A DNA stretch of 64,000 nucleotides from Anderseniella sp. (GCA_028289645.1 JANQOK010000020.1:42562-106561); one strand, 5' to 3'; numbered from the stretch's first letter, positions 2,604 to 61,803 are shown. Numbers and translations: made by a program. Notes: generated by a model from the letters alone, not told the origin.

Positions 2604-6353
<3,750 letters not shown>

Positions 6354-15610: not shown

Positions 15611-15979
15611 CTATTTCAGCCTGGCAACACCGAGCGGCACCGAGTATTTCCTGCACCAGATAACCACTTGCTTGGCGGCTTTGGTTGCTGCGGTGGCTCG
15701 CACCGAATAGGTGCCTGAGCCCTTGTTTTTTGCCAGAATGCCGGCGGTGCCGCCTTTGACCGGACGTGACCCGTTGCCCAGCGTCACGTACGGGTCCGGC
15801 GCGCCATCGAGGCTGAAATTTGACCCCAGCCTGATCACCATCTTGCCGCCCCGTTGCGTAACCGTTACCGATCCGGACGTCTTGTGGCCCGAAGCGCCCT
15901 TGAAGGTGCCGCCGGCGGCCATAGAGGGAACTGCCGTTGCGATGAGCAGGGCGGCGGCGAGTGCAGGTGCTCTCAACAT
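15611..15979 (-). CDS. Secreted DM13 domain protein
   Basis: Signal peptide; GTF.G..GH...G.V, GAPDPYV.L, V.IWC.KYSV.LG.A.L. Confidence 0.8.
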   Translation of the reverse strand: MLRAPALAAALLIATAVPSMAAGGTFKGASGHKTSGSVTVTQRGGKMVIRLGSNFSLDGAPDPYVTLGNGSRPVKGGTAGILAKNKGSGTYSVRATAATKAAKQVVIWCRKYSVPLGVARLK

Positions 15980-49292: not shown

Positions 49293-49306
49293 TCCCCGTT
49301 GGACAG

Positions 49307-50035
49307 TTACTCCGACAATGCTGTTACGTCATCTGCCAGACAGTAGCCGATACCGTGTATTGTCTTGATGTAACGGGGCTGCCTGCTGTCCGGCTCTAGT
49401 TTTTTGCGCAACCGCATGATGTGAACATCGATGGCGCGGTCACCAACAACCGTCGCTTGCCCTCTTGTCAGGTCAAACAACTGGTCCCGGCTCAAGGCGA
49501 CACGGGGCTGCTCGATCAGCGCCCGCAGCAGGTCAAACTCCATACTTGTCAGCCCGGCATCCCGTGTGTCTTCGGTGTGCACAACGGTGCGTTCGCTGAG
49601 GTTGACGGTCCAGGTGCCAAATCTGAGCACCTGTCCAACAGAATTGGTTTTTGCCGTCGCGACGCCATCATTGTTCACCCGTCGCAACACGGATCGGATT
49701 CTGGCGACCAGTTCGCGCGGTTCGAATGGCTTGGTCACATAGTCATCGGCGCCGAACTCGAGCCCGAAAATGCGATCAAACGCCTCGTTGCGCACGCTCA
49801 GCACGATGATCGGGAGGTTCGAGTCACGCCGGACTTCCCTGGTCAACTGGAAGCCATCGGCATCTGGCAGCCCGACATCCAGGACGCACAAGTCAATGTT
49901 TTCCTGCCTTAAAGTGTCTCGCATCTGCTGTCCGGTTGCGGCGCACGAAACGCGGAAACCCTGCTTTTCCAGATAGCGTTTCAGAAACGACGTGATCTGA
50001 ACGTCGTCATCTACAACAAGAATGTGTTCGTTCAT
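49307..50035 (-). CDS. OmpR-family response regulator (TorR/DorR-like)
   Basis: ILVVDDD, LDVGLPD.DG, GADDYVTKPF.PREL.ARI; winged helix LT..EF.LL, R.IDVHI.RLR.KLE, TIHGIGY. Confidence 0.93.
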   Translation of the reverse strand: MNEHILVVDDDVQITSFLKRYLEKQGFRVSCAATGQQMRDTLRQENIDLCVLDVGLPDADGFQLTREVRRDSNLPIIVLSVRNEAFDRIFGLEFGADDYVTKPFEPRELVARIRSVLRRVNNDGVATAKTNSVGQVLRFGTWTVNLSERTVVHTEDTRDAGLTSMEFDLLRALIEQPRVALSRDQLFDLTRGQATVVGDRAIDVHIMRLRKKLEPDSRQPRYIKTIHGIGYCLADDVTALSE

Positions 50036-50157
50036 GGCAGTTCCGGCCGATCACCGGGAGTTAACACTATGCCCCGCGTTACCTACAGACATAACGAGGA
50101 AGCTGCAACCGTGCCGGTGTGCTTGCAATGCTGGACATTACAAGGCCAGATGGCGTT

Positions 50158-52365
50158 ATGGTCACCTCTTCAGACAAAGCAAAATTGCCGGTCAGGCTGG
50201 TACTGTCAGGTCTCGGCGCTGCTCTGCTACTGGCCGCCACGGTATTGGCCGGCGTTTATCTCGGCAGCCAGACGCAACAGCGGTTTCAGGACGTCGGCCA
50301 GAGCTGGCAGACCTTTACTGCGGAAGCTGAACGCCGCGGCGCGCTGCTCAGCCGGATTCGGGGGCATCTTGGTTATGGCGGCATAATCCATAACTTCAAG
50401 AACTATGTTCTGCGCCAGGACCAGCGCTATCTCGACAGCCTGATCAGGCAGTTTGAGGACTTTGGAAACACGGTCGACGAATACCGCAAGAGCGGCGCCA
50501 CGGCGGTTGAACTGGGTCATCTCAAGACCATTGAAGACACGATCGCATTGTATCGCTCCAAATTGCCCATTGCCCAGCAGGCTGCCAGGCAAAACTGGCC
50601 GCCGCTGCGAACCGACGGCCTCGTCAAGGTGGATGATACCGAGGCCGTCTCCGCGCTTGAAGCACTGGAGGCGTACTGGTGGGACAAGCATCAGGCCTCG
50701 ACACAGGACATTGCCCGGGCTGTTGATGAAGGCGAGGCGCTGGTAACTATCGGTTTCCGGTTTCTCGCTGGTCTGGCGGTCGTTGCATTGTTGCTCTACG
50801 GCTTGTTCTATCTGCTTCAGGCCGAATTGCGTCAGACCATTGGCAGACTGTCCAATGAACTGCGCGAGCGTCGCGTGGCGGAGCATGTCGCCAAGAAGTT
50901 TCAGCGCGCGGTCGATCAAAGTCCCGCCACCATCATCATCACCGACACCCAGGGCATCATTGAATATGTCAATCAGAAATTCTGTGACCTGACCGGGTAT
51001 TCAGCCGGAGAGGTAATCGGCAAGACACCGCAATTGCTGCAGTCCGGCGACGTCTCTGGTGATGAGTACGTTGCCCTGCGCCAGCAGCTGGTTCGCGGCG
51101 AAGAGTGGCGCGGCACATTTCGCAACCGCAAGAAGTCTGGAGCTCCCTACTGGGCGAAGACGGCAATTCTGCCGTTGCGTGACGACAAGGGGCTGATCAC
51201 CCATTTTATCGGGCTCGGCGAGGATCAGACAGAAAGACGCAAAGCCCGCGACCATATCCATCGCGCGCAGCGAATAGAGGCGGTCAGCATGCTGGCCAGC
51301 GGTGTGGCCCACGATTTCAACAATGTGCTGACCACCATTCTCGGCAATGTGCACCTGGCCAGGCTGGATGCCCCGGCCAAGGGCGAATTTTCGGAGGAAC
51401 TGGAGCAGATTGAGGTTGCGGCCAAGAGGGCCCGCAACCTGGTCGGGCAGATATTCGCCTTTGCCCGGCGCCAGGCAGGCGAAGCAGTCGCCGTTCAGGT
51501 AAACGAGGTTGTGGAGGAAGTCGCACATCTGCTGCAGTCGTCACTGCAACCGAACATCGCCATCAGGTGCCGGATTGACGATGCCGATATGGTGGTGAAG
51601 GCCGATCCGACCCGCCTGCACCAGGTAATCATGAACCTGTGCTCCAATGCCGCCGAGGCGATCGGGCCGCCGGGTGGCAACATCACCATCAGCGTGACGG
51701 CGGATGCTGTCGGTGAGACACCGGAAAGACGAGTATGTGTCTCGGTGAGTGACGATGGACCGGGAATCGCGGATGACTTGCAGGGAAAGATTTTTGATCC
51801 GTTTTTCACCACCAAGACCGCCGGCAAGGGAACCGGGTTGGGGTTGTCCGTAGTGGCCAACCTGGTTGGCGAGATGGGCGGCCAGATTGACGTGACAAGC
51901 ACCGTCGGGCAGGGCACCAACTTCAAGGTGCGCCTGCCGCTCAGCGATGAGCGCATAGAGAAGCGTTCGGCTTCCGGTGAATTGCCATCGGGTTCAGGTC
52001 GGATCCTGCTGATCGATGACGAAGTGGAGGTGGCGGCAACCTGCGCCAAGCTGCTGCGGCGCCTGGGTTACGACGTCGAAGAGTACTATGACCCGGTCAA
52101 AGCCATGCAGACCTTCAGGTCAGGGCCGGATCAGTTTGCGCTGGTGATCACCGATCTGGTGATGCCTGGCCTGTCCGGCAGCGAGGTTTGCCGGATTGTG
52201 CGTGAACTGCGTCCAGCCTGTCCGCTGGTTGCTTATTCGGCTTATCAACCCGACGGTATTGACTTCGATCAGGCCGGTATCATGCGCTTCATGCACAAGC
52301 CCATCGAACCCGCGCAACTTGCCCGCATTGCCAGCGAGATGACCCGCCTCGACCATGTTGGCTGA
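50158..52365 (+). CDS. Membrane hybrid sensor histidine kinase (periplasmic sensor, PAS, HisKA, HATPase, REC)
   Basis: Two TMs flanking the GYGGIIHNFKNYVLR domain; PAS; LASGVAHDFNN H-box; QVIMNLC.NA, FDPFFTTK..GKGTGLGL; C-terminal REC ITDLVMPG. Confidence 0.93.
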   Translation: MVTSSDKAKLPVRLVLSGLGAALLLAATVLAGVYLGSQTQQRFQDVGQSWQTFTAEAERRGALLSRIRGHLGYGGIIHNFKNYVLRQDQRYLDSLIRQFEDFGNTVDEYRKSGATAVELGHLKTIEDTIALYRSKLPIAQQAARQNWPPLRTDGLVKVDDTEAVSALEALEAYWWDKHQASTQDIARAVDEGEALVTIGFRFLAGLAVVALLLYGLFYLLQAELRQTIGRLSNELRERRVAEHVAKKFQRAVDQSPATIIITDTQGIIEYVNQKFCDLTGYSAGEVIGKTPQLLQSGDVSGDEYVALRQQLVRGEEWRGTFRNRKKSGAPYWAKTAILPLRDDKGLITHFIGLGEDQTERRKARDHIHRAQRIEAVSMLASGVAHDFNNVLTTILGNVHLARLDAPAKGEFSEELEQIEVAAKRARNLVGQIFAFARRQAGEAVAVQVNEVVEEVAHLLQSSLQPNIAIRCRIDDADMVVKADPTRLHQVIMNLCSNAAEAIGPPGGNITISVTADAVGETPERRVCVSVSDDGPGIADDLQGKIFDPFFTTKTAGKGTGLGLSVVANLVGEMGGQIDVTSTVGQGTNFKVRLPLSDERIEKRSASGELPSGSGRILLIDDEVEVAATCAKLLRRLGYDVEEYYDPVKAMQTFRSGPDQFALVITDLVMPGLSGSEVCRIVRELRPACPLVAYSAYQPDGIDFDQAGIMRFMHKPIEPAQLARIASEMTRLDHVG

Positions 52366-52370
52366 AACAT

Positions 52371-52400
52371 CTCGTTACAACTCTTCATAAAACTTCACAA
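52371..52400 (+). promoter_or_regulatory. Three in-phase decamer direct repeats (CTCGTTACAA, CTCTTCATAA, AACTTCACAA), candidate OmpR-family operator
   Basis: 10-bp periodicity about 140-170 bp upstream of the first peroxidase ATG; the middle unit is 8/10 identical to the TorR box CTGTTCATAT. Confidence 0.55.
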
Positions 52401-52537
52401 GATTCCCGCCTGAGAGAAATACCCGCGTTACATTGCGGGCATAGGCTCCCCAATGAGTTTGAGCGAAGCAACGTTGTCTGAGGTGCTGAAGACCGGCGTT
52501 GCCCGCCCATTTGCGCAACGCAAAAAGGGGAGGTGGC

Positions 52538-53659
52538 ATGGCACATGTTCCAGTAGGTCAAAACCTGTTCGGGTTAAGGGGAGCATTGCTGGCTCCGGTT
52601 ATGGTTGCGCTGACAGGCGCCTTGAGCATGCCGGCCAGCGCCGATGACTTTGGTCCGGTAAAGCCCCTGGAGGTAAAGCGCGAGCTTGCAGACCTGGGCA
52701 AGCGGCTGTTCTTCGACGAGCGGCTCTCAGGCGACACCAGCCTGGCCTGTGCCAGCTGCCATCAGCCGGACAAGGCATTCACCGACGGCAAGGCTCTGTC
52801 CGACGCCTATACGGGCTCGTCCCACTTCCGCAACACGCCGACGCTTGCCAATGTCGGCCACCGCGCGGCCTGGTTCCACGATGGGCGCCTGGGCACCAAC
52901 CTGAACGATGTGACCCGGGAATCGATCACAGAAACCTACTTCATGAACATGGACATGCGCATCATGCAGGAGCGCCTCAAGCAGGACCCTGTCTATGTTG
53001 AAATGTTTAAGAAGGCTGGCAAGGGAACCCCTTCCAACGGCGGCGCCCGCTCTGCAATCCAGGAGTTCTTGAAATCGATCACATCAAGCGGTGCTCCGTT
53101 TGACACCGGCGACATGTCAGATTCCGCCAAAGCCGGCTTTGAGCTGTTCAAGGGCAAGGCATCCTGTGCGGAGTGTCATACAGGGCCCCGGTTTACCGAC
53201 GATCAGCCGCACAATACCGGCGTGCCGGAAAATCCGGATATCTGGTCCGATCCCGACCGCCACGTGACATTTGTGACCTACGCCAAGTTCATGGGTATTG
53301 AAAACTACATGAATGTGCGCCGCGATCTCGGCGCTTATGTGCGCGATCACAAACCGGAAAGTGCCGGCAAGTTCATGACGCCGACATTGCGTGAACTGAC
53401 CTACACGGCTCCGTACATGCACAACGGCACCATGGCTTCGCTGGAAGAGGTGGTCGAGTTCTACAATGCCGGTGGCGGCAACAAGGCCAACAAGGACAAA
53501 CGCCTGCATCCTTTGAACCTGACCGACGAGGAAAAGGGCGATCTTGTCGAGTTCCTGAAGTCGCTGTCCGGCAACAGCTTCGATGTTCCGTCCTACAATC
53601 CCGGCGAGATCGACACCGATTATCCGTTGATCGCCGACTGGCGCAACCAGAAAAACTGA
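52538..53659 (+). CDS. idrP2: Di-haem cytochrome c peroxidase-family protein (IdrP-like; distal to idrB)
   Basis: Signal peptide; LG..LFFD.RLSGD, CASCH, RNTPTL, CAECH, F.TPTLR...TAPYMHNG; P1/P2 numbering assumed from position. Confidence 0.8.
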   Translation: MAHVPVGQNLFGLRGALLAPVMVALTGALSMPASADDFGPVKPLEVKRELADLGKRLFFDERLSGDTSLACASCHQPDKAFTDGKALSDAYTGSSHFRNTPTLANVGHRAAWFHDGRLGTNLNDVTRESITETYFMNMDMRIMQERLKQDPVYVEMFKKAGKGTPSNGGARSAIQEFLKSITSSGAPFDTGDMSDSAKAGFELFKGKASCAECHTGPRFTDDQPHNTGVPENPDIWSDPDRHVTFVTYAKFMGIENYMNVRRDLGAYVRDHKPESAGKFMTPTLRELTYTAPYMHNGTMASLEEVVEFYNAGGGNKANKDKRLHPLNLTDEEKGDLVEFLKSLSGNSFDVPSYNPGEIDTDYPLIADWRNQKN

Positions 53660-53672
53660 AGAGGGGCTGATC

Positions 53673-54815
53673 ATGAAATTCCAAATCTCAATCCCGCTTG
53701 CTGCAATCACCCTGGTGGCGTCCTCACTGGCGGTGTTTATAGCGCCCGCCCAGGCCCAGGATCGGCCGGCCATGCTGGCGCCGCTGGGCGATCCGCCAAA
53801 TCCGCCGGACAATCCGACCACCCAGGAAAAGGTGGAACTCGGCAAGCTGCTGTTCTTTGACGGGCGCCTGTCGGGCAACGGCGCGATGCCCTGTTCGGCC
53901 TGCCACTTGCCGGATGCCGGTTGGGACTTTCCTGAGAAGATATCTCTGGGTTATCCCGGTACCACTCACTGGCGCAACAGCCAGACCATCATCAACTCCG
54001 CCTATTACGGCAAGCTGTTCTGGGCCGGGTCCTCGAAATCGCTTGAGGGCCAGGCCAGGTCAGCCGCACGCGGCGGTGTGGCTGGAAACGGGGAAGACGA
54101 CATGATGGAGGCCCGCCTGGCCTTCGTCCCGGAATACCGCAAGCGGTTCAAGGCCGTGTTCGGCGACACCTGGCCGAACGTGCGTCATGCCTACATGGCC
54201 ATTGCCGCATTTGAACGTACGCTTGTGCAGACCGATACCCCGTTCGACAACTACATGCGCGGCGATGACAACGCCCTCAACGCGTCTCAGAAGCGTGGCC
54301 TGGACCTGTTTACCGGAAAGGCGGGCTGTGCCCAGTGTCACTCCGGTGCGATGTTGACCAACGAGAAATACTATAACCTCGGCGTGCCGCCCTATGACGG
54401 TTGGGAGACCGATCCGCTGGCGCAGATCACGTTCCGGTTCGAGCTCTATGCCAAGGGGACGAGCCAGGACAAGTACAAGAAGTTCAAGGATGATCCGGGC
54501 TTCTATTTCCGAACCAAGCAGGTCGCCGATCTCGGCAAGTTCCGTGTGCCGTCGCTGCGCTACACCAAGTACACCGCTCCCTACATGCACAACGGCATGT
54601 TGGCCTCGCTGGCCGATGTCGTCGAGTTCTACAATGCCGGCGGCGGCGAAAACGAGTTTGCAGCAACCAAGACAAAGCTGATCAAGCCGCTCGGTCTCAA
54701 CGATACGGAGAAGGCTGATCTGGTGGCGTTCATCGAAAGCCTGTCGGGAGAGCGGATCGAGATGGAACAGCCCGATCTGCCGCCCAGCGAGCCGCTGCCG
54801 GCTTCATCAAATTGA
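53673..54815 (+). CDS. idrP1: Di-haem cytochrome c peroxidase-family protein (IdrP-like; adjacent to idrB)
   Basis: Signal peptide; LGKLLFFD.RLSG, CSACH, RNSQT, CAQCH, FRVPSLR...TAPYMHNG; numbering assumed from position. Confidence 0.8.
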   Translation: MKFQISIPLAAITLVASSLAVFIAPAQAQDRPAMLAPLGDPPNPPDNPTTQEKVELGKLLFFDGRLSGNGAMPCSACHLPDAGWDFPEKISLGYPGTTHWRNSQTIINSAYYGKLFWAGSSKSLEGQARSAARGGVAGNGEDDMMEARLAFVPEYRKRFKAVFGDTWPNVRHAYMAIAAFERTLVQTDTPFDNYMRGDDNALNASQKRGLDLFTGKAGCAQCHSGAMLTNEKYYNLGVPPYDGWETDPLAQITFRFELYAKGTSQDKYKKFKDDPGFYFRTKQVADLGKFRVPSLRYTKYTAPYMHNGMLASLADVVEFYNAGGGENEFAATKTKLIKPLGLNDTEKADLVAFIESLSGERIEMEQPDLPPSEPLPASSN

Positions 54816-55414
54816 CAATGCAGGAGAAAGCCATGACTGAGAACACTGGCCTGATAGAAGCCATCAATGGACCTGCAGAAGCGCGCAAGACCGGGCGCAG
54901 CTGTGTCCTGAACCGCAGGTCGTTCCTGCTCACCTCGGGCGTTGCCACGGCCACCGTCATGGTGACCATGCACACCGCAGACGGGTTGGCCAACGTGCCG
55001 GCGCTGGTTGCCACTTACCCGCGCAAGTTGATCGGCAAACTGTCCGAACTGAAGCCGGACGAGCCGCTGGATTTCGCCTATCCGGACGACAATTCCTACT
55101 CTGAATCGATGCTTGTGAAGCTTGGCCGCGAAGCCGGCGGCGGTATCGGGCCCGACAAGGATGTCGTTGCCTTCAATTACAACTGCACCCATCAGGGCGG
55201 TCCGCTGCAGGGCACCTACCAGGCCGACGACAAGGCTCTGGGGCCGTGCCCGCTGCACCTGACCACGTTCGACCTCACCCGGCACGGCATGTTCATTTCC
55301 GGTCAGGCCTATCAAAGCCTGCCGCAGGTTCTTCTCGAGCTTGATGGTGACGATATCTATGCCGTTGGCATGTTTGGCCTGATCTATGGCCGTTACGACA
55401 ATCTGCAGGGGTAA
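54812..55414 (+). CDS. idrB: Tat-exported Rieske subunit, AioB/IdrB family
   Basis: NRRSFLL twin-arginine motif; GGGIGP..D.VAF, CTHQGG and CPLH Rieske boxes, GQAYQSLPQV.L; start 54812 or 54833. Confidence 0.85.
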   Translation: MTMQEKAMTENTGLIEAINGPAEARKTGRSCVLNRRSFLLTSGVATATVMVTMHTADGLANVPALVATYPRKLIGKLSELKPDEPLDFAYPDDNSYSESMLVKLGREAGGGIGPDKDVVAFNYNCTHQGGPLQGTYQADDKALGPCPLHLTTFDLTRHGMFISGQAYQSLPQVLLELDGDDIYAVGMFGLIYGRYDNLQG

Positions 55415-55426
55415 GGGAGACCAAAC

Positions 55427-58102
55427 ATGACAACGCCGTATTATATTCCCGAAACCAACATTCCGCTGCCGCCGGTCGATGCCGACGTGATCTCCACCGC
55501 CTGCGACTATTGCATCGTCGCGTGCGGCTACAAGGTCTATCGCTGGCCGGTTAGAGGCGGCAAGGTGGGCGGCCCGAAGGCCGACCAGAACGCATTTGGC
55601 GTCGATTTCCCGGTTGAAATTCTGGGACCCTGGGTGGCCCCGAACCAGTACAATGTCGTGCTGCACGAAAACGAGCCGCATCACGTCATCATCATTCCGG
55701 ACAAGGATGCCAAGCACGTCAACATCAACGGCAACTCGTCGATCCGCGGCGGTGCCATTGCGCAGAAGGTCTACAACCCGCAGACCCCGACCCGTGACCG
55801 GCTGAAATCGCCGATGATCCGCATGTTCGGCGTTCTGATGCCGGTGCCGTGGGATTTCGCGCTGGAGATCGCCGCTGAAGTCGGCAAGCACGTGATTGAA
55901 AAGCATGGCGCCAATGCCTACTGCGTGAAAACCTTCTCCTATGGCTACATGGAAAACACCTATGCCATCACCAAATATGCGCTAAGGCACATCTCAACCG
56001 CCAACTTCACTTTCCATGACACGCCGTCCGATGTCACCTCGACGCCGGGCTTCCGTGATGCGGGCTTTGACAATTTCGGACCGGCATATGAAGACTGGCG
56101 TGATGCCGAAACCTTGATGATCTGCGGCACCGATCCGTATGAATCGAAAACCATCCTTTTTACCGACTGGATCATGCCGGCGATTCAGGGTGGCCAGAAG
56201 ACCATCTTCCTCAGCCCGCGCAATACGGGCGGGATTGCCTATGCGGTCAAGAACGGCGGCATGTGGATCGACCTTCTGCCGGGTACCGACCTGCCGGTGG
56301 TGCTGGCCATTGCCCGGGTCATCGTCGAGAACGGCTGGCAGGACGACGAGTGGATCAGGAACTGGGTCAACAACAAATCCGAAAGCTCGTCCGGCTTTGG
56401 CCAGGGCACGCGCAACACGCCGTGGCAGTGGCGCACCACGTGGGGCAAATTCCAGACGGGCGGTTTTGACGACTGGAAAAAGTGGTTGCTCGAGCAGGAC
56501 TACGCGGTGCCGGAAAAGGCGGCGGAAATTGCCCAGATCGATGTTGCCAAGATCTACACCGCGGCCGAATGGCTGGCCAAGCCACGCGAAGACGGGTCAC
56601 GCCCGAAGGCGTCGTTCATGATCGAGAAGGGCTTCTACTGGTCGAACAACACCGGCAACACCAACGCCATATCGGCGCTCGGCATCACCTGTGGCGCCGG
56701 CGGCAGGCCGGGCCAGATGATCGGCCGCGCCGGCGGTCACCAGCGTGGCGGTCTTCGCGGTGGCAAGTACCCGCGCAACAAGTCGCCGGAAAAACTGCCG
56801 GGGCGCCGTCGCCGGGCCATGGACACCGACCGCTATCTGATGTCGGGTCATACCCGGCTGGCCCATGTCATCGGCAATACGTGGATCCAGTCCATGTGCG
56901 GCAGCCAGAGCCTGTCTGCGAAATTTGAGGAACTGACGGCTCAGAATCCGCATCAGATCAGGTCGTTTGACAAGCAGGAGATCATCGAAACGCTCAAGAA
57001 GCGCGCCGACTCCGGCGGCATGGTCGTGTTCGACCAGGACATCTACCTTGTCGACCCGATCGGGGCCCGGTTCGCCGACATCATCTTCCCGGCAGCCGGT
57101 TGGGGAGAGGACACGTTCACCCGTGCCAACGGTGAACGCAGGATCCGGCTGTATCCGAAGTTCTACGACCCGCCGGGAGAGGCAAAGCCGGACTGGTGGA
57201 TCATCGCGCAGCTTTCGAAGAAAATGGGTTTTGAGGGCTTTGACTGGAACAACTCGAACGATGTTCTCGAAGAAGGGGCACGGTTCTCCCGCGGCAGCCG
57301 CAAGGACTTCTTCATGGTCAAGGTCGCCGCCCAGAAGGAAGGCAAGACCCTGCACCAGAAACTCGGTGAGTTCGGAACCGACGGGATCCAGGGCCCTGTG
57401 ATGATGCTGGATGACGGCAGCCTGGAAGGCACCAAGCGCCTGCATGACACGACCCGCAAGCTGCCCGATGACGGTGCGGCCGGTGCCAATGTCTTCAACA
57501 AGAAGCTGACCCATTTCAATTCGCAGACCGGCAAGTGCAACATCCAGAAAGCACCGTGGTCACTGTTCTCCGACTATTGGGAGTGGCTCAGTCCGAAAGG
57601 CGATGAATTGTGGACCACGTCCGGCCGCATCAACGAGCGCTGGCAGTCGGGTTACGATGATCGCAGGCGTCCCTACATTGTGCAGCGCTGGCCGGAAAAC
57701 TGGGTTGAGCTGCATCCTGACGACGCAGCCGCCCGGGGCATCGAGAACGGCGACTATGTGATGTTGTATTCCGATCGCATCCCGGTTCAGGTTGACACCA
57801 TCATCGGCATCGAGGGCGATGACTTCACTTTCACGAAGCTGATGGAGAACGGTCATATCAAGCTGGAAAAAGCCGCCATTACTGCCGTCGCCATCGTGAC
57901 GCCGGCGCTCAAGAAGGGGGTCATGTACATGGACTTCCTGCACACTTCCCAGCCGGCCAATGCACTGGCCGGGCGGGTCGTGGACTGGATCAGCGGCAAC
58001 TACAACTACAAGATGGGTGTCGGCAATGTGAAGAAGATCGGCGAGTCCCCGTACAAGCACGACTTCCGGTCCATGTCGTTTGCACGGCGCGACATCGCCT
58101 GA
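55427..58102 (+). CDS. idrA: Molybdopterin oxidoreductase large subunit, AioA-like IdrA clade (candidate iodate reductase)
   Basis: CDYCIVACG [3Fe-4S] motif, SSIRGG, RAGGHQ, GRINE.WQ; no signal peptide of its own; context of two CCPs plus Rieske. Confidence 0.83.
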   Translation: MTTPYYIPETNIPLPPVDADVISTACDYCIVACGYKVYRWPVRGGKVGGPKADQNAFGVDFPVEILGPWVAPNQYNVVLHENEPHHVIIIPDKDAKHVNINGNSSIRGGAIAQKVYNPQTPTRDRLKSPMIRMFGVLMPVPWDFALEIAAEVGKHVIEKHGANAYCVKTFSYGYMENTYAITKYALRHISTANFTFHDTPSDVTSTPGFRDAGFDNFGPAYEDWRDAETLMICGTDPYESKTILFTDWIMPAIQGGQKTIFLSPRNTGGIAYAVKNGGMWIDLLPGTDLPVVLAIARVIVENGWQDDEWIRNWVNNKSESSSGFGQGTRNTPWQWRTTWGKFQTGGFDDWKKWLLEQDYAVPEKAAEIAQIDVAKIYTAAEWLAKPREDGSRPKASFMIEKGFYWSNNTGNTNAISALGITCGAGGRPGQMIGRAGGHQRGGLRGGKYPRNKSPEKLPGRRRRAMDTDRYLMSGHTRLAHVIGNTWIQSMCGSQSLSAKFEELTAQNPHQIRSFDKQEIIETLKKRADSGGMVVFDQDIYLVDPIGARFADIIFPAAGWGEDTFTRANGERRIRLYPKFYDPPGEAKPDWWIIAQLSKKMGFEGFDWNNSNDVLEEGARFSRGSRKDFFMVKVAAQKEGKTLHQKLGEFGTDGIQGPVMMLDDGSLEGTKRLHDTTRKLPDDGAAGANVFNKKLTHFNSQTGKCNIQKAPWSLFSDYWEWLSPKGDELWTTSGRINERWQSGYDDRRRPYIVQRWPENWVELHPDDAAARGIENGDYVMLYSDRIPVQVDTIIGIEGDDFTFTKLMENGHIKLEKAAITAVAIVTPALKKGVMYMDFLHTSQPANALAGRVVDWISGNYNYKMGVGNVKKIGESPYKHDFRSMSFARRDIA

Positions 58103-58108
58103 ACCTGA

Positions 58109-58136
58109 TCTCCGGGTGCGTTTGTGCGCCCGGAGA
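58109..58136 (+). other. Intercistronic hairpin without U-tract between idrA and the HEAT gene
   Basis: tctccggg/cccggaga 8-bp stem, extendable with G-U pairs. Confidence 0.5.
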
Positions 58137-58156
58137 ACTGCTGGGAGATCGAAGCC

Positions 58157-60460
58157 ATGGCAATTGCAATGCCCCGGCAGGACACGGCGTCCTGCGAGTT
58201 CAGCGAGCTTGCGCGCGCGCTGGCCGACATAGTTGTCAACGGCAACAATGCAGAGCGTTGCCTTGCCGTGCAGGGGTTGGGAAAACTGGACCACCCGACC
58301 GCCACGGATACTTTGATTGCCTCATTGCGCGATGCTGATCCCGATGTGCGCTGTGATGCGGCTGCCGCGCTGGCGAGTTTGAACGTTTCGGCAGCCTGTC
58401 AGCCACTGACGGACAACTTACGTGAAGACCCGGATTCCGAGGCAAAGACGCAATATGTCAAGGCGTTGCAGACCCTCGGGGCTGACGGCTGCCATGACTT
58501 GTTGTCGGCATTGGCAGTTGGCCGTGGGGAACACCACGACATAGCCTGGGATGAGGCCTATTCAGACTGGGATGACTGGCTCGACGTGCAATTGGCCGCT
58601 GTGGAGGCCCTGGGTGTGCTGGGTGCGGAGCAGGCCCCGGCGGTCATCGAGACGGCCCTCAACGACCCGGAAGGTCAGGACCTGTGGCCTGTGGCGTGCA
58701 CAGCGCTGGCGCGGCTGGGACGGCCCGGAATGGAAAAGCTGCAGCAATTGCTGTCACAGGCATCGGTGTTGAACCGCAAGCGTGTTGCTGCGGCACTTGC
58801 AGCCACGGATCCTGCTTTGTCCGGGGCGCTGATGCGACAACTTGCAGCTGATCGGGACGCCAGCGTACGTCTTGCAGTTGTCGAGAGCGCGGCCGCATCG
58901 GCAAGCGACGAAATACTGACCCTGGGACTTGATGATGTCGCCCCTGAAGTGCGAGCGGCGGCTGTCGCCGGCCTCGGGCAAGTGAGCACGAAGGCGCTCG
59001 ACAAGGCGCTCAATGATATCAGCCCGATCGTCGTTATTGCCGCCTGCAAGGCGATAGAGGGCGCCGGGCAACCGGTTGCCGGGCTGGCGCTCGTGTCGAG
59101 GACCGAACGCTCACTGCGCACCAAGCCACCAGAGGTGATCGCCGCAATGCTGGCTGCCGCCGCCGTTGCAGAGCCACGCCAGGCCTCGGCCTTGATTGAA
59201 GACATCTGCGATCACAGGAACACCGATGCCAGGGTGCGCCGTGTTTGCCTGCGGGCCGCGTCCACTTTGAACATGCCGGGTCTCAATGAAATGCTTGATC
59301 AGGCGATCGCCTCGGATGATCAGGCGGTGCGCATGGAAGCCATATCCGCATTGGCCGATCTGGCAAAGGCTGACGGCCCGGACGCAGATCGCGCGGCAGT
59401 TCAACTTGCAGAAACCATTGCCGGCGCGAAGATCGCCGCTCCTGTAGGAGAAGGCGACCAGGAAACCGGCACGGTCGTCCAGTTCGTCCCCAAAAAGGGG
59501 AAACAGGCGGCAGGCGATGAGGGTGATGCGACCATCAAGTTGGATCGCGGCGGCAATGAGATGCCATCAGCGGACAAGTCCGACAGCGACGGAACTGATG
59601 AGGCTGCACAATCCGGACAGAACGTCGATGAACCGCCTCCGCAATCTACCCTACAGGCCATCATGGCGGTTAACCCGGAGCGGATGCAGGCCGGCAATAC
59701 GGTTGAACTGGAAGATGCCGACCTGTCATTCCTGGAAATGACCGGGTCTCTCGTGCGCCGGCGCAAGCTGGACCCCGAGGCGAAACCTCCTGCCCATCTT
59801 GATGTCCGGCGTCTGGCGGCCGGTGTCGCCGGTGATACCCGCAAGTCGGTACTGGTTATGGCGCTCGCCCGTGCGGCAACCGAACGGGATGCTGCTCTCA
59901 GCGATGCTGCATTGAGCTCACTGCGCCGCCTGGCTGACCAGGACATAGATATGTCGGAGGCGCAACAGGACATGATTGTTCTGGCTTCGGGCAATGATGA
60001 CGGGCGCTGCCGGCAGGCAATACCGGTTCTCGGCGCAATTGCCTCGCCTGAGTCCGTTGAAGCGGTCCGCAATACCGCCGGCCACCGCTCACCCCAGGTG
60101 AGGGCAGCCTCATTGGCCGCACTGGTAACGGCCGGAACATTGACAGACGAGGAGTTTGCTTCGGCTGTTTCTGATCCAGATCACAAGGTCAGGCTCGCGG
60201 CAATAGAGGCAAGACAGCAAACCGGTCATCCCGGCATGGTGGCGCTCCTGCTCGAGCAGGCCCGGATGGAATCAGGCCGCCACAAGCATGAGGTTGCGAA
60301 ATTGCTGGCGACAGGTCCGAGTGATGCATTGCCGACGTTGACTGACTGGATCGCTGGTGCCGACACCCAAAGCAGATATCTGGCGCTGGAGATGCTGCCG
60401 GTGGTGCTTGCGGCCATGGCTGGCAACAAGGAAGGACATGATCATGCAGCCGCATCATAG
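58157..60460 (+). CDS. Large HEAT-repeat (PBS-lyase-like) protein
   Basis: Repeated L.D.DP.VR..AA.AL units, central acidic disordered insert, no signal peptide; stop overlaps the moeA start. Confidence 0.87.
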   Translation: MAIAMPRQDTASCEFSELARALADIVVNGNNAERCLAVQGLGKLDHPTATDTLIASLRDADPDVRCDAAAALASLNVSAACQPLTDNLREDPDSEAKTQYVKALQTLGADGCHDLLSALAVGRGEHHDIAWDEAYSDWDDWLDVQLAAVEALGVLGAEQAPAVIETALNDPEGQDLWPVACTALARLGRPGMEKLQQLLSQASVLNRKRVAAALAATDPALSGALMRQLAADRDASVRLAVVESAAASASDEILTLGLDDVAPEVRAAAVAGLGQVSTKALDKALNDISPIVVIAACKAIEGAGQPVAGLALVSRTERSLRTKPPEVIAAMLAAAAVAEPRQASALIEDICDHRNTDARVRRVCLRAASTLNMPGLNEMLDQAIASDDQAVRMEAISALADLAKADGPDADRAAVQLAETIAGAKIAAPVGEGDQETGTVVQFVPKKGKQAAGDEGDATIKLDRGGNEMPSADKSDSDGTDEAAQSGQNVDEPPPQSTLQAIMAVNPERMQAGNTVELEDADLSFLEMTGSLVRRRKLDPEAKPPAHLDVRRLAAGVAGDTRKSVLVMALARAATERDAALSDAALSSLRRLADQDIDMSEAQQDMIVLASGNDDGRCRQAIPVLGAIASPESVEAVRNTAGHRSPQVRAASLAALVTAGTLTDEEFASAVSDPDHKVRLAAIEARQQTGHPGMVALLLEQARMESGRHKHEVAKLLATGPSDALPTLTDWIAGADTQSRYLALEMLPVVLAAMAGNKEGHDHAAAS

Positions 60461-61712
60461 TGCCGGACCAGGCATTGCAGCCTGCACAGGATCCCAGAGC
60501 GGAAAGCTGACGACGCTGGATGTGGCTGTCGAACGCGGGTGCAGGCTGGCAAGTCCGGTTGAAGACACCATCAGCCTGCCACTGGAAGACGCATGTGGAC
60601 GGGTTCTTGCCACGCCGGTCACGGCACCTGGACCCCAGCCGCACTTCGATAATTCAGCCATGGACGGATATGCCGTGAGGTTTGCGGATCTGTCGGGCAT
60701 CGGTCCCTGGAGGTTGACGGTCGACGGCAGGATCGCCGCTGGCGACACCGGCGCCGGGCTGCACACGGCCCGGGCACTGCGGGTGCTGACCGGCGCGCCG
60801 GTGCCGCCGGAATTTGATGCGGTTATCATGCAGGAGCATGTCGAGCGGCTGGATGGTGCAATACTTGTTGCCCGGCGTCCCCGACCTGGTGAGAACATCC
60901 GGCGAGCCGGTGAAGACATCAAGCCGGGTCAGACATTGCTGGAATGCGGACATGTCTTGTCGCCGGCACGGCTGGCACTGGCAGCGTCAACCGGGCTGGC
61001 AATGCTGGATGTGCGCCGCAAGGTGCGTGTCGCAATCTTTTCAACGGGTAACGAACTCCGCCAGCCGGGTGAAACCTTGAACTTCGGGCAGATCTACAAT
61101 TCCAACCGCTTCATGCTCAAGGGCCTGCTTGCCCAGCCGATGCTCGAGGTCATTGACCTGGGCTCGTTGCCGGACGACAGGGTGAGGCTTGCCGAGGCGC
61201 TGGCCGCCGCGTCAAAGCAGGCAGATATCGTGATCACGACCGGAGGCGTATCGGTCGGCGAAGAAGATCATATGCCAGACCTGGTCCGCGACGCCGGGGG
61301 GCAACTGCACGTCCTGAACGTCGCCATGAAGCCAGGCAAGCCGGTCACGCTTGGAGAGATGAGCAGTGCGTTGTATGTCGGGTTGCCGGGAAATCCTGTA
61401 GCGGCATTCGTCACGTTCAACCTGATTGCGCGGCCCATGATCGACAGACTTGCGGGCGCAACAAGACCGCAAAACAGCAAATTCCCTGCAATCAGTGATT
61501 TCCAGCGGCGCAGGCGGCCGCATCGCGTCGAGTACGTTCCGGTTCGGATCACGGGCCGTGACGATCAGGGGCTGCCGATGGTGCAAATGCTGGGGCACGG
61601 CAGTTCTGCCGCGCTATTGCCGATCGCGCTGGCAGATGGGCTGGCGATGGTTGACGCAGGTGTCGGTGAATTGTCCAAAGGCGACACAATCACCTACCTG
61701 CCGTTCGGCTGA
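60438..61712 (+). CDS. moeA: Molybdopterin molybdotransferase (gephyrin-like)
   Basis: GRVLA, P.FDNSAMDGYA, TGAPVP, STGNEL, IYNSN, TTGGVSVGEED, MKPGKP, GLPGNPV. Confidence 0.95.
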   Translation: MIMQPHHSAGPGIAACTGSQSGKLTTLDVAVERGCRLASPVEDTISLPLEDACGRVLATPVTAPGPQPHFDNSAMDGYAVRFADLSGIGPWRLTVDGRIAAGDTGAGLHTARALRVLTGAPVPPEFDAVIMQEHVERLDGAILVARRPRPGENIRRAGEDIKPGQTLLECGHVLSPARLALAASTGLAMLDVRRKVRVAIFSTGNELRQPGETLNFGQIYNSNRFMLKGLLAQPMLEVIDLGSLPDDRVRLAEALAAASKQADIVITTGGVSVGEEDHMPDLVRDAGGQLHVLNVAMKPGKPVTLGEMSSALYVGLPGNPVAAFVTFNLIARPMIDRLAGATRPQNSKFPAISDFQRRRRPHRVEYVPVRITGRDDQGLPMVQMLGHGSSAALLPIALADGLAMVDAGVGELSKGDTITYLPFG

Positions 61713-61803
61713 CAATCCGCAGCGGCAAAGCTTCATAAAATTCAGCGGCTTACTGCGTTAAGCTGCTGTTTCATCCGGATCATGTGTCAGTTGCTCGCGA
61801 GAC

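Follow-up and report, generated by a model that had tools for sequence, protein, structure and literature searches.

A Probable Iodate Reductase Gene Cluster on a 12.5-kb Accessory Island in an Anderseniella Genome

We analyzed a 64,000-nucleotide stretch of DNA from Anderseniella sp. (GCA_028289645.1, JANQOK010000020.1:42562-106561; hereafter the window, in which positions are counted from the first letter) that carries the four genes idrP2-idrP1-idrB-idrA. From the comparisons presented below, we consider it highly probable that these genes specify a periplasmic iodate reductase of the described Idr family, carried by a marine alphaproteobacterium on an accessory island of 12.5 kb. The cluster is an intact copy of the known idr cluster rather than a new observation, and apart from its island it is an ordinary copy: idrABP1P2 has already been published in aerobic marine Alphaproteobacteria, with iodate reduction shown in three of them, Roseovarius azorensis, Notoacmeibacter marinus and also Aliiroseovarius sediminilitoris (Kine, Yamamura and Amachi 2024, PMC11445184). 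The window copy adds one more host genus for idr and confirms a systematic annotation error, and it leaves knowledge of the enzyme unchanged. What is new in this analysis is the clean presence or absence of the island within one genus, together with a conserved HEAT-repeat partner.

Gene content and motifs of the cluster

The initial annotation, made from the sequence alone, had recognized a complete idrP2-idrP1-idrB-idrA-type cluster at 52538-58102, composed of two tandem di-haem cytochrome c peroxidases, a Rieske subunit exported by twin-arginine translocation (Tat), and an 891-amino-acid molybdoenzyme with a C-x2-C-x3-C motif. Our results bore this description out. Four open reading frames (ORFs), all on the plus strand, were found within 52499-58102, in agreement with that extent, and the PF03150 matches, the CxxCH motifs, the Tat and Rieske motifs, and the [3Fe-4S] motif were all confirmed; gene content, motifs, synteny, and phylogeny agreed in assigning the cluster to the published Idr family and not to AioBA, the arsenite oxidase. 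Because the gaps between successive idr genes are 13, -4, and 12 bp (the second becoming 17 bp if idrB begins at ATG 54833), the arrangement looks like an operon.

The two peroxidases are paralogues that share 39% identity. The CxxCH motifs of IdrP2 lie at residues 84 and 223, numbered on the ORF from TTG 52499, and a GGGGAGG ribosome-binding site precedes the ATG at 52538, backing that start; those of IdrP1 lie at residues 74 and 219. By eye, the N-termini of both proteins (MKFQ...APAQA/QD in IdrP1) resemble Sec signals. In Azoarcus DN11, the accessions of IdrB, IdrP1, and IdrP2 follow one another in an order that agrees with the position of idrP1 beside idrB. IdrB carries the Tat motif NRRSFLL at residues 34-40 and the Rieske motif C125-T-H127-x18-C146-P-L-H149, which is identical to the published IdrB motif CxHx18Cx2H; the real start of its gene is probably ATG 54833, which is preceded by AGGAGA. 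The N-terminal [3Fe-4S] motif of IdrA reads C26-x2-C29-x3-C33-x70-S104 (Cx2Cx3Cx70S), with its three cysteines invariant in 263 of 263 IdrA-type proteins and S104 invariant in a nine-sequence alignment. Because IdrA has no signal peptide of its own and IdrB has a Tat signal, IdrA is presumably exported as a complex with IdrB.

A motif set for IdrA, IdrB, IdrP1, and IdrP2 has been published for Azoarcus DN11 and Pseudomonas SCT (PMC10149662), and two di-haem peroxidase genes beside idrBA were the criterion for the threshold of the IdrA hidden Markov model (Reyes-Umana et al., PMC8692401). All published Idr sequence motifs were found in the four window proteins, so that the cluster unites the large-subunit motif, the small subunit with Tat signal and Rieske motif, the two adjoining di-haem peroxidases, and the tree position of an Idr system. 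The likeness to the Idr systems of SCT, Denitromonas IR-12, and DN11, which is one of motif and description, extends from the motifs themselves (Cx2Cx3Cx70S in IdrA, Tat and CxHx18Cx2H in IdrB, and 2 x Cx2CH in each peroxidase) to a sensor kinase and regulator upstream, nearby molybdenum-cofactor genes, and an island location, as here. The systems differ in that the DN11 regulator is of the sigma-54 type (AtoC/AtoS) whereas the window regulator is of the OmpR/TorR type, and in that SCT has a cytochrome c gene nearby whereas the window island has none. Their hosts are anaerobic iodate respirers among the denitrifying Beta- and Gammaproteobacteria, unlike the class of the window host.

Phylogenetic placement and the arsenite oxidase label

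We constructed a maximum-likelihood tree of 58 large subunits, and a second one after fragments had been included; the clade was anchored through taxa that papers name as idr carriers rather than through the IdrA proteins of Pseudomonas SCT, Denitromonas IR-12, Azoarcus DN11, and R. azorensis themselves. The window IdrA (P0004) was placed beside a protein from an Anderseniella metagenome-assembled genome (MAG), to which it is 98% identical, inside a 26-tip alphaproteobacterial subclade with a support of 100. This subclade includes Thalassovita (=Litorimicrobium) taeanensis, named as an idr carrier by Reyes-Umana et al. (PMC8692401), and Pseudovibrio, named as one in the supplement of Kine et al. 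(PMC11445184). Its sister is a gamma/zetaproteobacterial subclade with Sedimenticola, Moritella, relatives of Beggiatoa, Mariprofundaceae, and Vibrio, the last also a carrier taxon named in the literature, and the two subclades form a 40-tip crown clade with a support of 100 and a stem of 0.44. In the next lineage outward, P0127 (42% identity), a peroxidase gene likewise lies upstream; in the clade beyond it (P0128 and P0130) no peroxidases occur where the gene context is known, and AioA is far off. Large-subunit phylogeny had been put forward in the initial annotation as a check, and in this analysis the window protein fell with the named idr carriers in the peroxidase-linked crown clade, outside AioA and the peroxidase-less lineages, the anchoring being indirect. 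We also observed two lineages just outside the peroxidase-linked clade (L085 and L086, 41-44% identical to IdrA) in which the Rieske and molybdoenzyme genes occur without peroxidases; in L086, on an Acidimicrobiales-type contig, they adjoin multicopper oxidase and cupredoxin genes.

The gene set is widespread, and a genome scan found that at least 550 species-level genomes encode a relative; counts of loci and identities given here as "of 80" refer to the best 80 of these genomes. All of the best 80 are Alphaproteobacteria, with IdrA identities of 77-98% (98% for the Anderseniella MAG and 77-92% for the other 79 genomes), and they include Roseibium, Pseudovibrio, Pelagibius, Roseovarius, Ruegeria, Thalassovita, Kiloniella, and Filomicrobium. 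The P2-P1-B-A order was present in 78 of the 80 loci, and the remaining two were interrupted by contig ends; idrP2 has an orthologue at the corresponding place in 78 of the 80 and in Vibrio. Homologue searches seeded with the Mariprofundaceae and Sedimenticola proteins returned only marine gamma- and zetaproteobacterial relatives. In Vibrio sp. THAF190c, a complete idrP2-P1-B-A set with an IdrA 66% identical to that of the window lies on a 1.7-Mb secondary replicon, pTHAF190c_a (L001, 5187-10682), an interval for which PLSDB holds no annotated features.

Databases assign these genes a different identity. All named homologues carry the label arsenite oxidase or arsenate reductase (azurin), because the NCBI models for AioA and AioB score above their cut-offs on Idr proteins: TIGR02693 gave 415 bits for the window IdrA against a cut-off of 359, and TIGR02694 was likewise above its cut-off for IdrB. 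It had been anticipated in the initial annotation that pipelines would call the genes arsenite oxidase, and both the homologue names and the TIGR02693 score agree with this expectation. The proteins do share a fold and cofactor motifs with AioBA (Alcaligenes faecalis, 1G8K; Rhizobium NT-26, 4AAY), in which a Tat-exported Rieske small subunit is likewise paired with a [3Fe-4S] large subunit carrying a molybdenum-bis(pyranopterin guanine dinucleotide) cofactor. Solved AioA structures match the window IdrA at 240-286 bits, AioBA being the closest solved structure (286 bits), and the His and the Arg...His of the AioA active-site motifs are retained.

Nevertheless, the possibility that the genes encode an arsenite oxidase, as labeled, is extremely unlikely. 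The window IdrA is 25-27% identical to true AioA proteins (Bosea, Neotabrizicola, and Ralstonia) compared with 66% to the Vibrio IdrA-type protein, and its TIGR02693 score is about one third of those of true AioA from plasmid loci (1285 bits in Bosea and 1114 bits in Neotabrizicola); the IdrA-type proteins of Vibrio and Mariprofundaceae scored 383-386 bits. In the tree, long and fully supported branches divide the two groups. The pocket motifs of AioA, HNRPAYNSE and GGHQEG, read HDTPSDVTS and GGHQRG in IdrA (residues 197-205 and 434-442; window 56015-56041 and 56726-56752), and the two acidic residues of the AioA active site are replaced by Ser in 262 of 263 IdrA-type proteins (S205) and by Arg in all 263 (R440). 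The loss of two acidic residues and the gain of a basic one in the predicted pocket would fit an anionic substrate. Gene context differs as well: the aio loci of Bosea and Neotabrizicola have aioXSR-type regulators and ars genes and lack peroxidases, consistent with the earlier statement that true arsenite oxidase operons are without the twin peroxidases, whereas no aioXSR or ars genes were found among the genes of the 12.5-kb island, where peroxidases stand in their place. Moreover, the IdrA of R. azorensis was identified in a gel band stained for iodate-reducing activity (PMC11445184). We therefore rejected an arsenite oxidase identity for the large subunit on the basis of its identity values, its TIGR02693 score, the separate clades, and the pocket motifs; the AioBA family itself, an oxidase rather than a reductase, is marked by equivalog-level similarity to AioA, by its pocket motifs, and by an arsenic gene context, and the window genes have none of the three. 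Two further observations concern the pocket. Position 201 is unlikely to be an obligatory molybdenum ligand, because it is Ser in 224 and Ala in 35 of the 263 IdrA-type proteins, and R440 is common to the peroxidase-less sister clade but not to the lineages nearest AioA.

Iodate reduction and the physiology of the host

The closest characterized counterparts of the window system are the three tested marine Alphaproteobacteria, with which it shares the same four genes, host class, and habitat. Congeners of two of them, Roseovarius conchicola (L046) and Aliiroseovarius sp. (L048), have IdrA proteins 83% identical to that of the window, in the same subclade and with the same P2-P1-B-A order. The window host differs from them in belonging to another family (Anderseniella-like) and in also having narG; its kinase and regulator are 61-91% identical only to those of its nearest relatives and about 45% identical to those of roseobacters. 

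Taken together with the published models, the sequences suggest the following mechanism. IdrB, with its Tat signal and Rieske [2Fe-2S] cluster, and IdrA, with its [3Fe-4S] cluster and molybdopterin, would form an exported heterodimer, with two Sec-signal-like peroxidases encoded just upstream in an apparent single operon. By analogy with the models for SCT and IR-12, electrons from quinol would travel by way of bc1 to a soluble carrier, a cytochrome c or cupredoxin whose gene lies elsewhere in the genome, and from there through the Rieske and [3Fe-4S] clusters to the molybdenum site, where IO3- would be reduced to HIO. IdrP1 and IdrP2 would clear H2O2 or a related oxidant by-product, as in the published models, and expression would be induced by iodate and low oxygen, as in R. 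azorensis, probably through the adjacent kinase and regulator.

In these models the last step, from HIO to I-, would be abiotic disproportionation, chlorite dismutase (Cld) being absent. The initial annotation had noted that the window lacks a chlorite-dismutase-like gene and suggested a genome search; no match to PF06778 was found in the window or in the whole host genome, which is 98.7% complete. It had also called the handling of HOI unexplained, a point on which a published explanation does exist: according to a published proposal, HIO yields iodide and iodate by abiotic disproportionation (Reyes-Umana et al., PMC8692401). The same study counted 145 idr genomes, Alphaproteobacteria among them, of which only 2 have cld and 143 lack it. 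Because cld is so rare among idr genomes, its absence here is expected, and we rejected the view that it signals an incomplete pathway.

By analogy with the tested strains, the physiological role is likely to be iodate reduction under oxygen limitation. A true respiratory enzyme that supports growth, rather than an electron sink under oxygen limitation, is conceivable but seems distinctly less likely. The host encodes NarG (2170 bits; G000:C16:38581-42288) and the cbb3 oxidase subunit CcoN (G000:C7:120287-121657), which equip it for low-oxygen or anaerobic respiration, and no napA was found in its genome; because narG and ccoN are encoded, the host is probably capable of low-oxygen or nitrate respiration and not a strict aerobe. 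Furthermore, the idr-bearing denitrifiers DN11, IR-12, and SCT do respire iodate (PMC10149662, PMC8692401). On the other hand, in the three alphaproteobacteria tested, iodate reduction was confined to oxygen-limited conditions and did not sustain anaerobic growth (PMC11445184), seawater iodate, at about 0.45 uM, is too low for energy conservation to count much, and the island has neither a dedicated quinol-oxidizing module nor a cytochrome c. Thus, of the earlier claim that the organism can reduce or respire iodate, reduction is supported by the family placement, whereas respiration is weakened by the growth experiments in the three strains, the narG and ccoN of the host notwithstanding.

An Idr-type enzyme whose main substrate is another oxyanion (bromate, chlorate, or selenate), with iodate reduction as a side activity, appears improbable. 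No halogen oxyanion other than iodate is known to be abundant in seawater. In R. azorensis, iodate at the environmentally relevant concentration of 0.1 uM induced idrA, and iodate raised idr transcript levels 59-102-fold (PMC11445184), which argues against another main substrate. Such a substrate would accord with the frequent promiscuity of enzymes of the dimethyl sulfoxide (DMSO) reductase family, among which the DMSO reductase of Shewanella is reported to reduce iodate and bromate alike, and with the strictly conserved peroxidase pair, which implies a reactive by-product and not iodine chemistry in particular; no substrate range has been reported for alphaproteobacterial Idr.

Several points weigh against the iodate reductase reading. 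Clade membership is anchored only by the carrier taxa named in papers, and not by the validated IdrA proteins (SCT, IR-12, DN11, and R. azorensis) themselves; we found no paper linking Anderseniella with iodate; and what is known of substrate specificity in the alphaproteobacterial subclade comes from one activity stain and whole-cell assays. In addition, the island has no electron-donor gene, cupredoxin genes being located on other contigs, and we only infer the roles of the peroxidases, the HEAT-repeat protein, and the two-component system. Even so, an iodate reductase of the Idr family remained by far the best explanation. Bacterial iodate reduction supplies iodide to surface seawater, where iodide governs the deposition of ozone and the release of iodine into the atmosphere; because of these effects, idr-carrying lineages matter for models of the iodine cycle.

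The 12.5-kb island and its empty sites

The cluster lies within an island of eight genes (table 1), whose boundaries were defined by comparison with congeners. In three of them (G015, G010, and G002), the hydrolase, Rrf2, and iscS-like genes come no more than about 30 bp after tyrS-anmK; the flanks show 84-97% identity, and all eight island genes are missing at these sites (empty sites: L091 near 3226-3257, L092 near 3136-3170, and L093 near 15823-15861). The G+C content of the island (0.58-0.62) is like that of its surroundings, no integrase or flanking repeat was seen at the island junctions, and no tRNA genes were found in the window. This idrA (at least 98% identity) occurs in only 4 of the 24 genomes of the genus. 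The island in these four congeners at a defined site, with an intact empty site in three others, constitutes a natural experiment, and paired strains with and without it could reveal the fitness benefit of idr at low oxygen and the role of the HEAT-repeat partner.

Table 1. Coordinates of the island and its genes in the window.
Feature	Coordinates	Strand	Domains and remarks
Iodate-reduction island (candidate) between anmK and alpha/beta-hydrolase gene	49293..61803		12.5 kb, eight genes; empty sites in three congeners
OmpR/TorR-type response regulator, first island gene, divergent from kinase	49307..50035	-	Response_reg, Trans_reg_C
Hybrid histidine kinase (PAS) with receiver domain, immediately upstream of idrP2	50119..52365	+	PAS, HisKA, HATPase_c, Response_reg
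idrP2, di-haem cytochrome c peroxidase paralogue, outer of pair	52538..53659	+	PF03150 CCP_MauG 1e-37; two CxxCH
idrP1, di-haem cytochrome c peroxidase paralogue, adjoins idrB	53673..54815	+	PF03150 8e-42; two CxxCH
idrB, Tat-exported Rieske [2Fe-2S] small subunit, 200-aa ORF	54812/54833..55414	+	PF00355 Rieske, PF10518 TAT_signal, TIGR02694 123 bits
idrA, molybdopterin catalytic subunit, 891 aa	55427..58102	+	Pfam Rieske_3 (3Fe-4S), Molybdopterin, Molydop_binding
HEAT-repeat protein, no signal peptide	58124..60460	+	HEAT_2 x3; weak NblB/CpcE-like matches
moeA, molybdopterin molybdotransferase, last island gene	60438..61712	+	MoeA_N, MoCF_biosynth, MoeA_C; NF007960 374 bits

The genes that accompany idrP2P1BA on the island recur in related loci to different degrees. 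The kinase gene is found upstream of idrP2 in about 35 of the best 80 loci, with identities of 37-85%, and the response regulator occupies the same place in about 36 and is absent at the empty site; the top NCBIfam matches of the regulator, OmpR and TorR, were both under cut-off. Directly downstream of idrA, a homologue of the HEAT-repeat protein is encoded in at least 43 of the 80 loci, with an identity of just 26-67%, and we found no paper on Idr that describes this protein. Its gene probably starts at ATG 58157, which would give a product of 767 amino acids that is predicted to be cytoplasmic. The HEAT gene ends within the start region of moeA, where AAGGAAGG precedes the ATGs at 60438 and 60444; the two genes are predicted to be translationally coupled.

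On a broader reading, Idr in Alphaproteobacteria might form a self-contained mobile unit, some 12.5 kb long, comprising a kinase and regulator responsive to iodate or low oxygen, idrP2P1BA, the HEAT-repeat protein serving specifically in the assembly or maturation of Idr, and a MoeA of its own, that could support iodate-dependent growth in a host bearing NarG and cbb3. We regard this proposal as speculative and unlikely as a whole; iodate-dependent growth has reportedly not been shown in any alphaproteobacterium.

Between the kinase gene and idrP2 (52366-52537), tandem TTCATA/TTCACA hexamers lie 10 bp apart. Of 32 related intergenic regions, just 3 (L055, L078, and L083) had TTCAYA pairs at this spacing, the rest showing looser spacing or none, and a scan of the island for sigma-70 promoters and terminators yielded nothing above chance expectation. 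No second AioA-family gene, and hence no true aioA, was found in the host genome. About ten congeners (G001, G002, G005, G006, G010, G011, G016, G019, G021, and G023) carry a different AioA-like gene of about 830 amino acids that is 30-39% identical to IdrA; these genes may encode genuine arsenite oxidases or belong to the uncharacterized clade.

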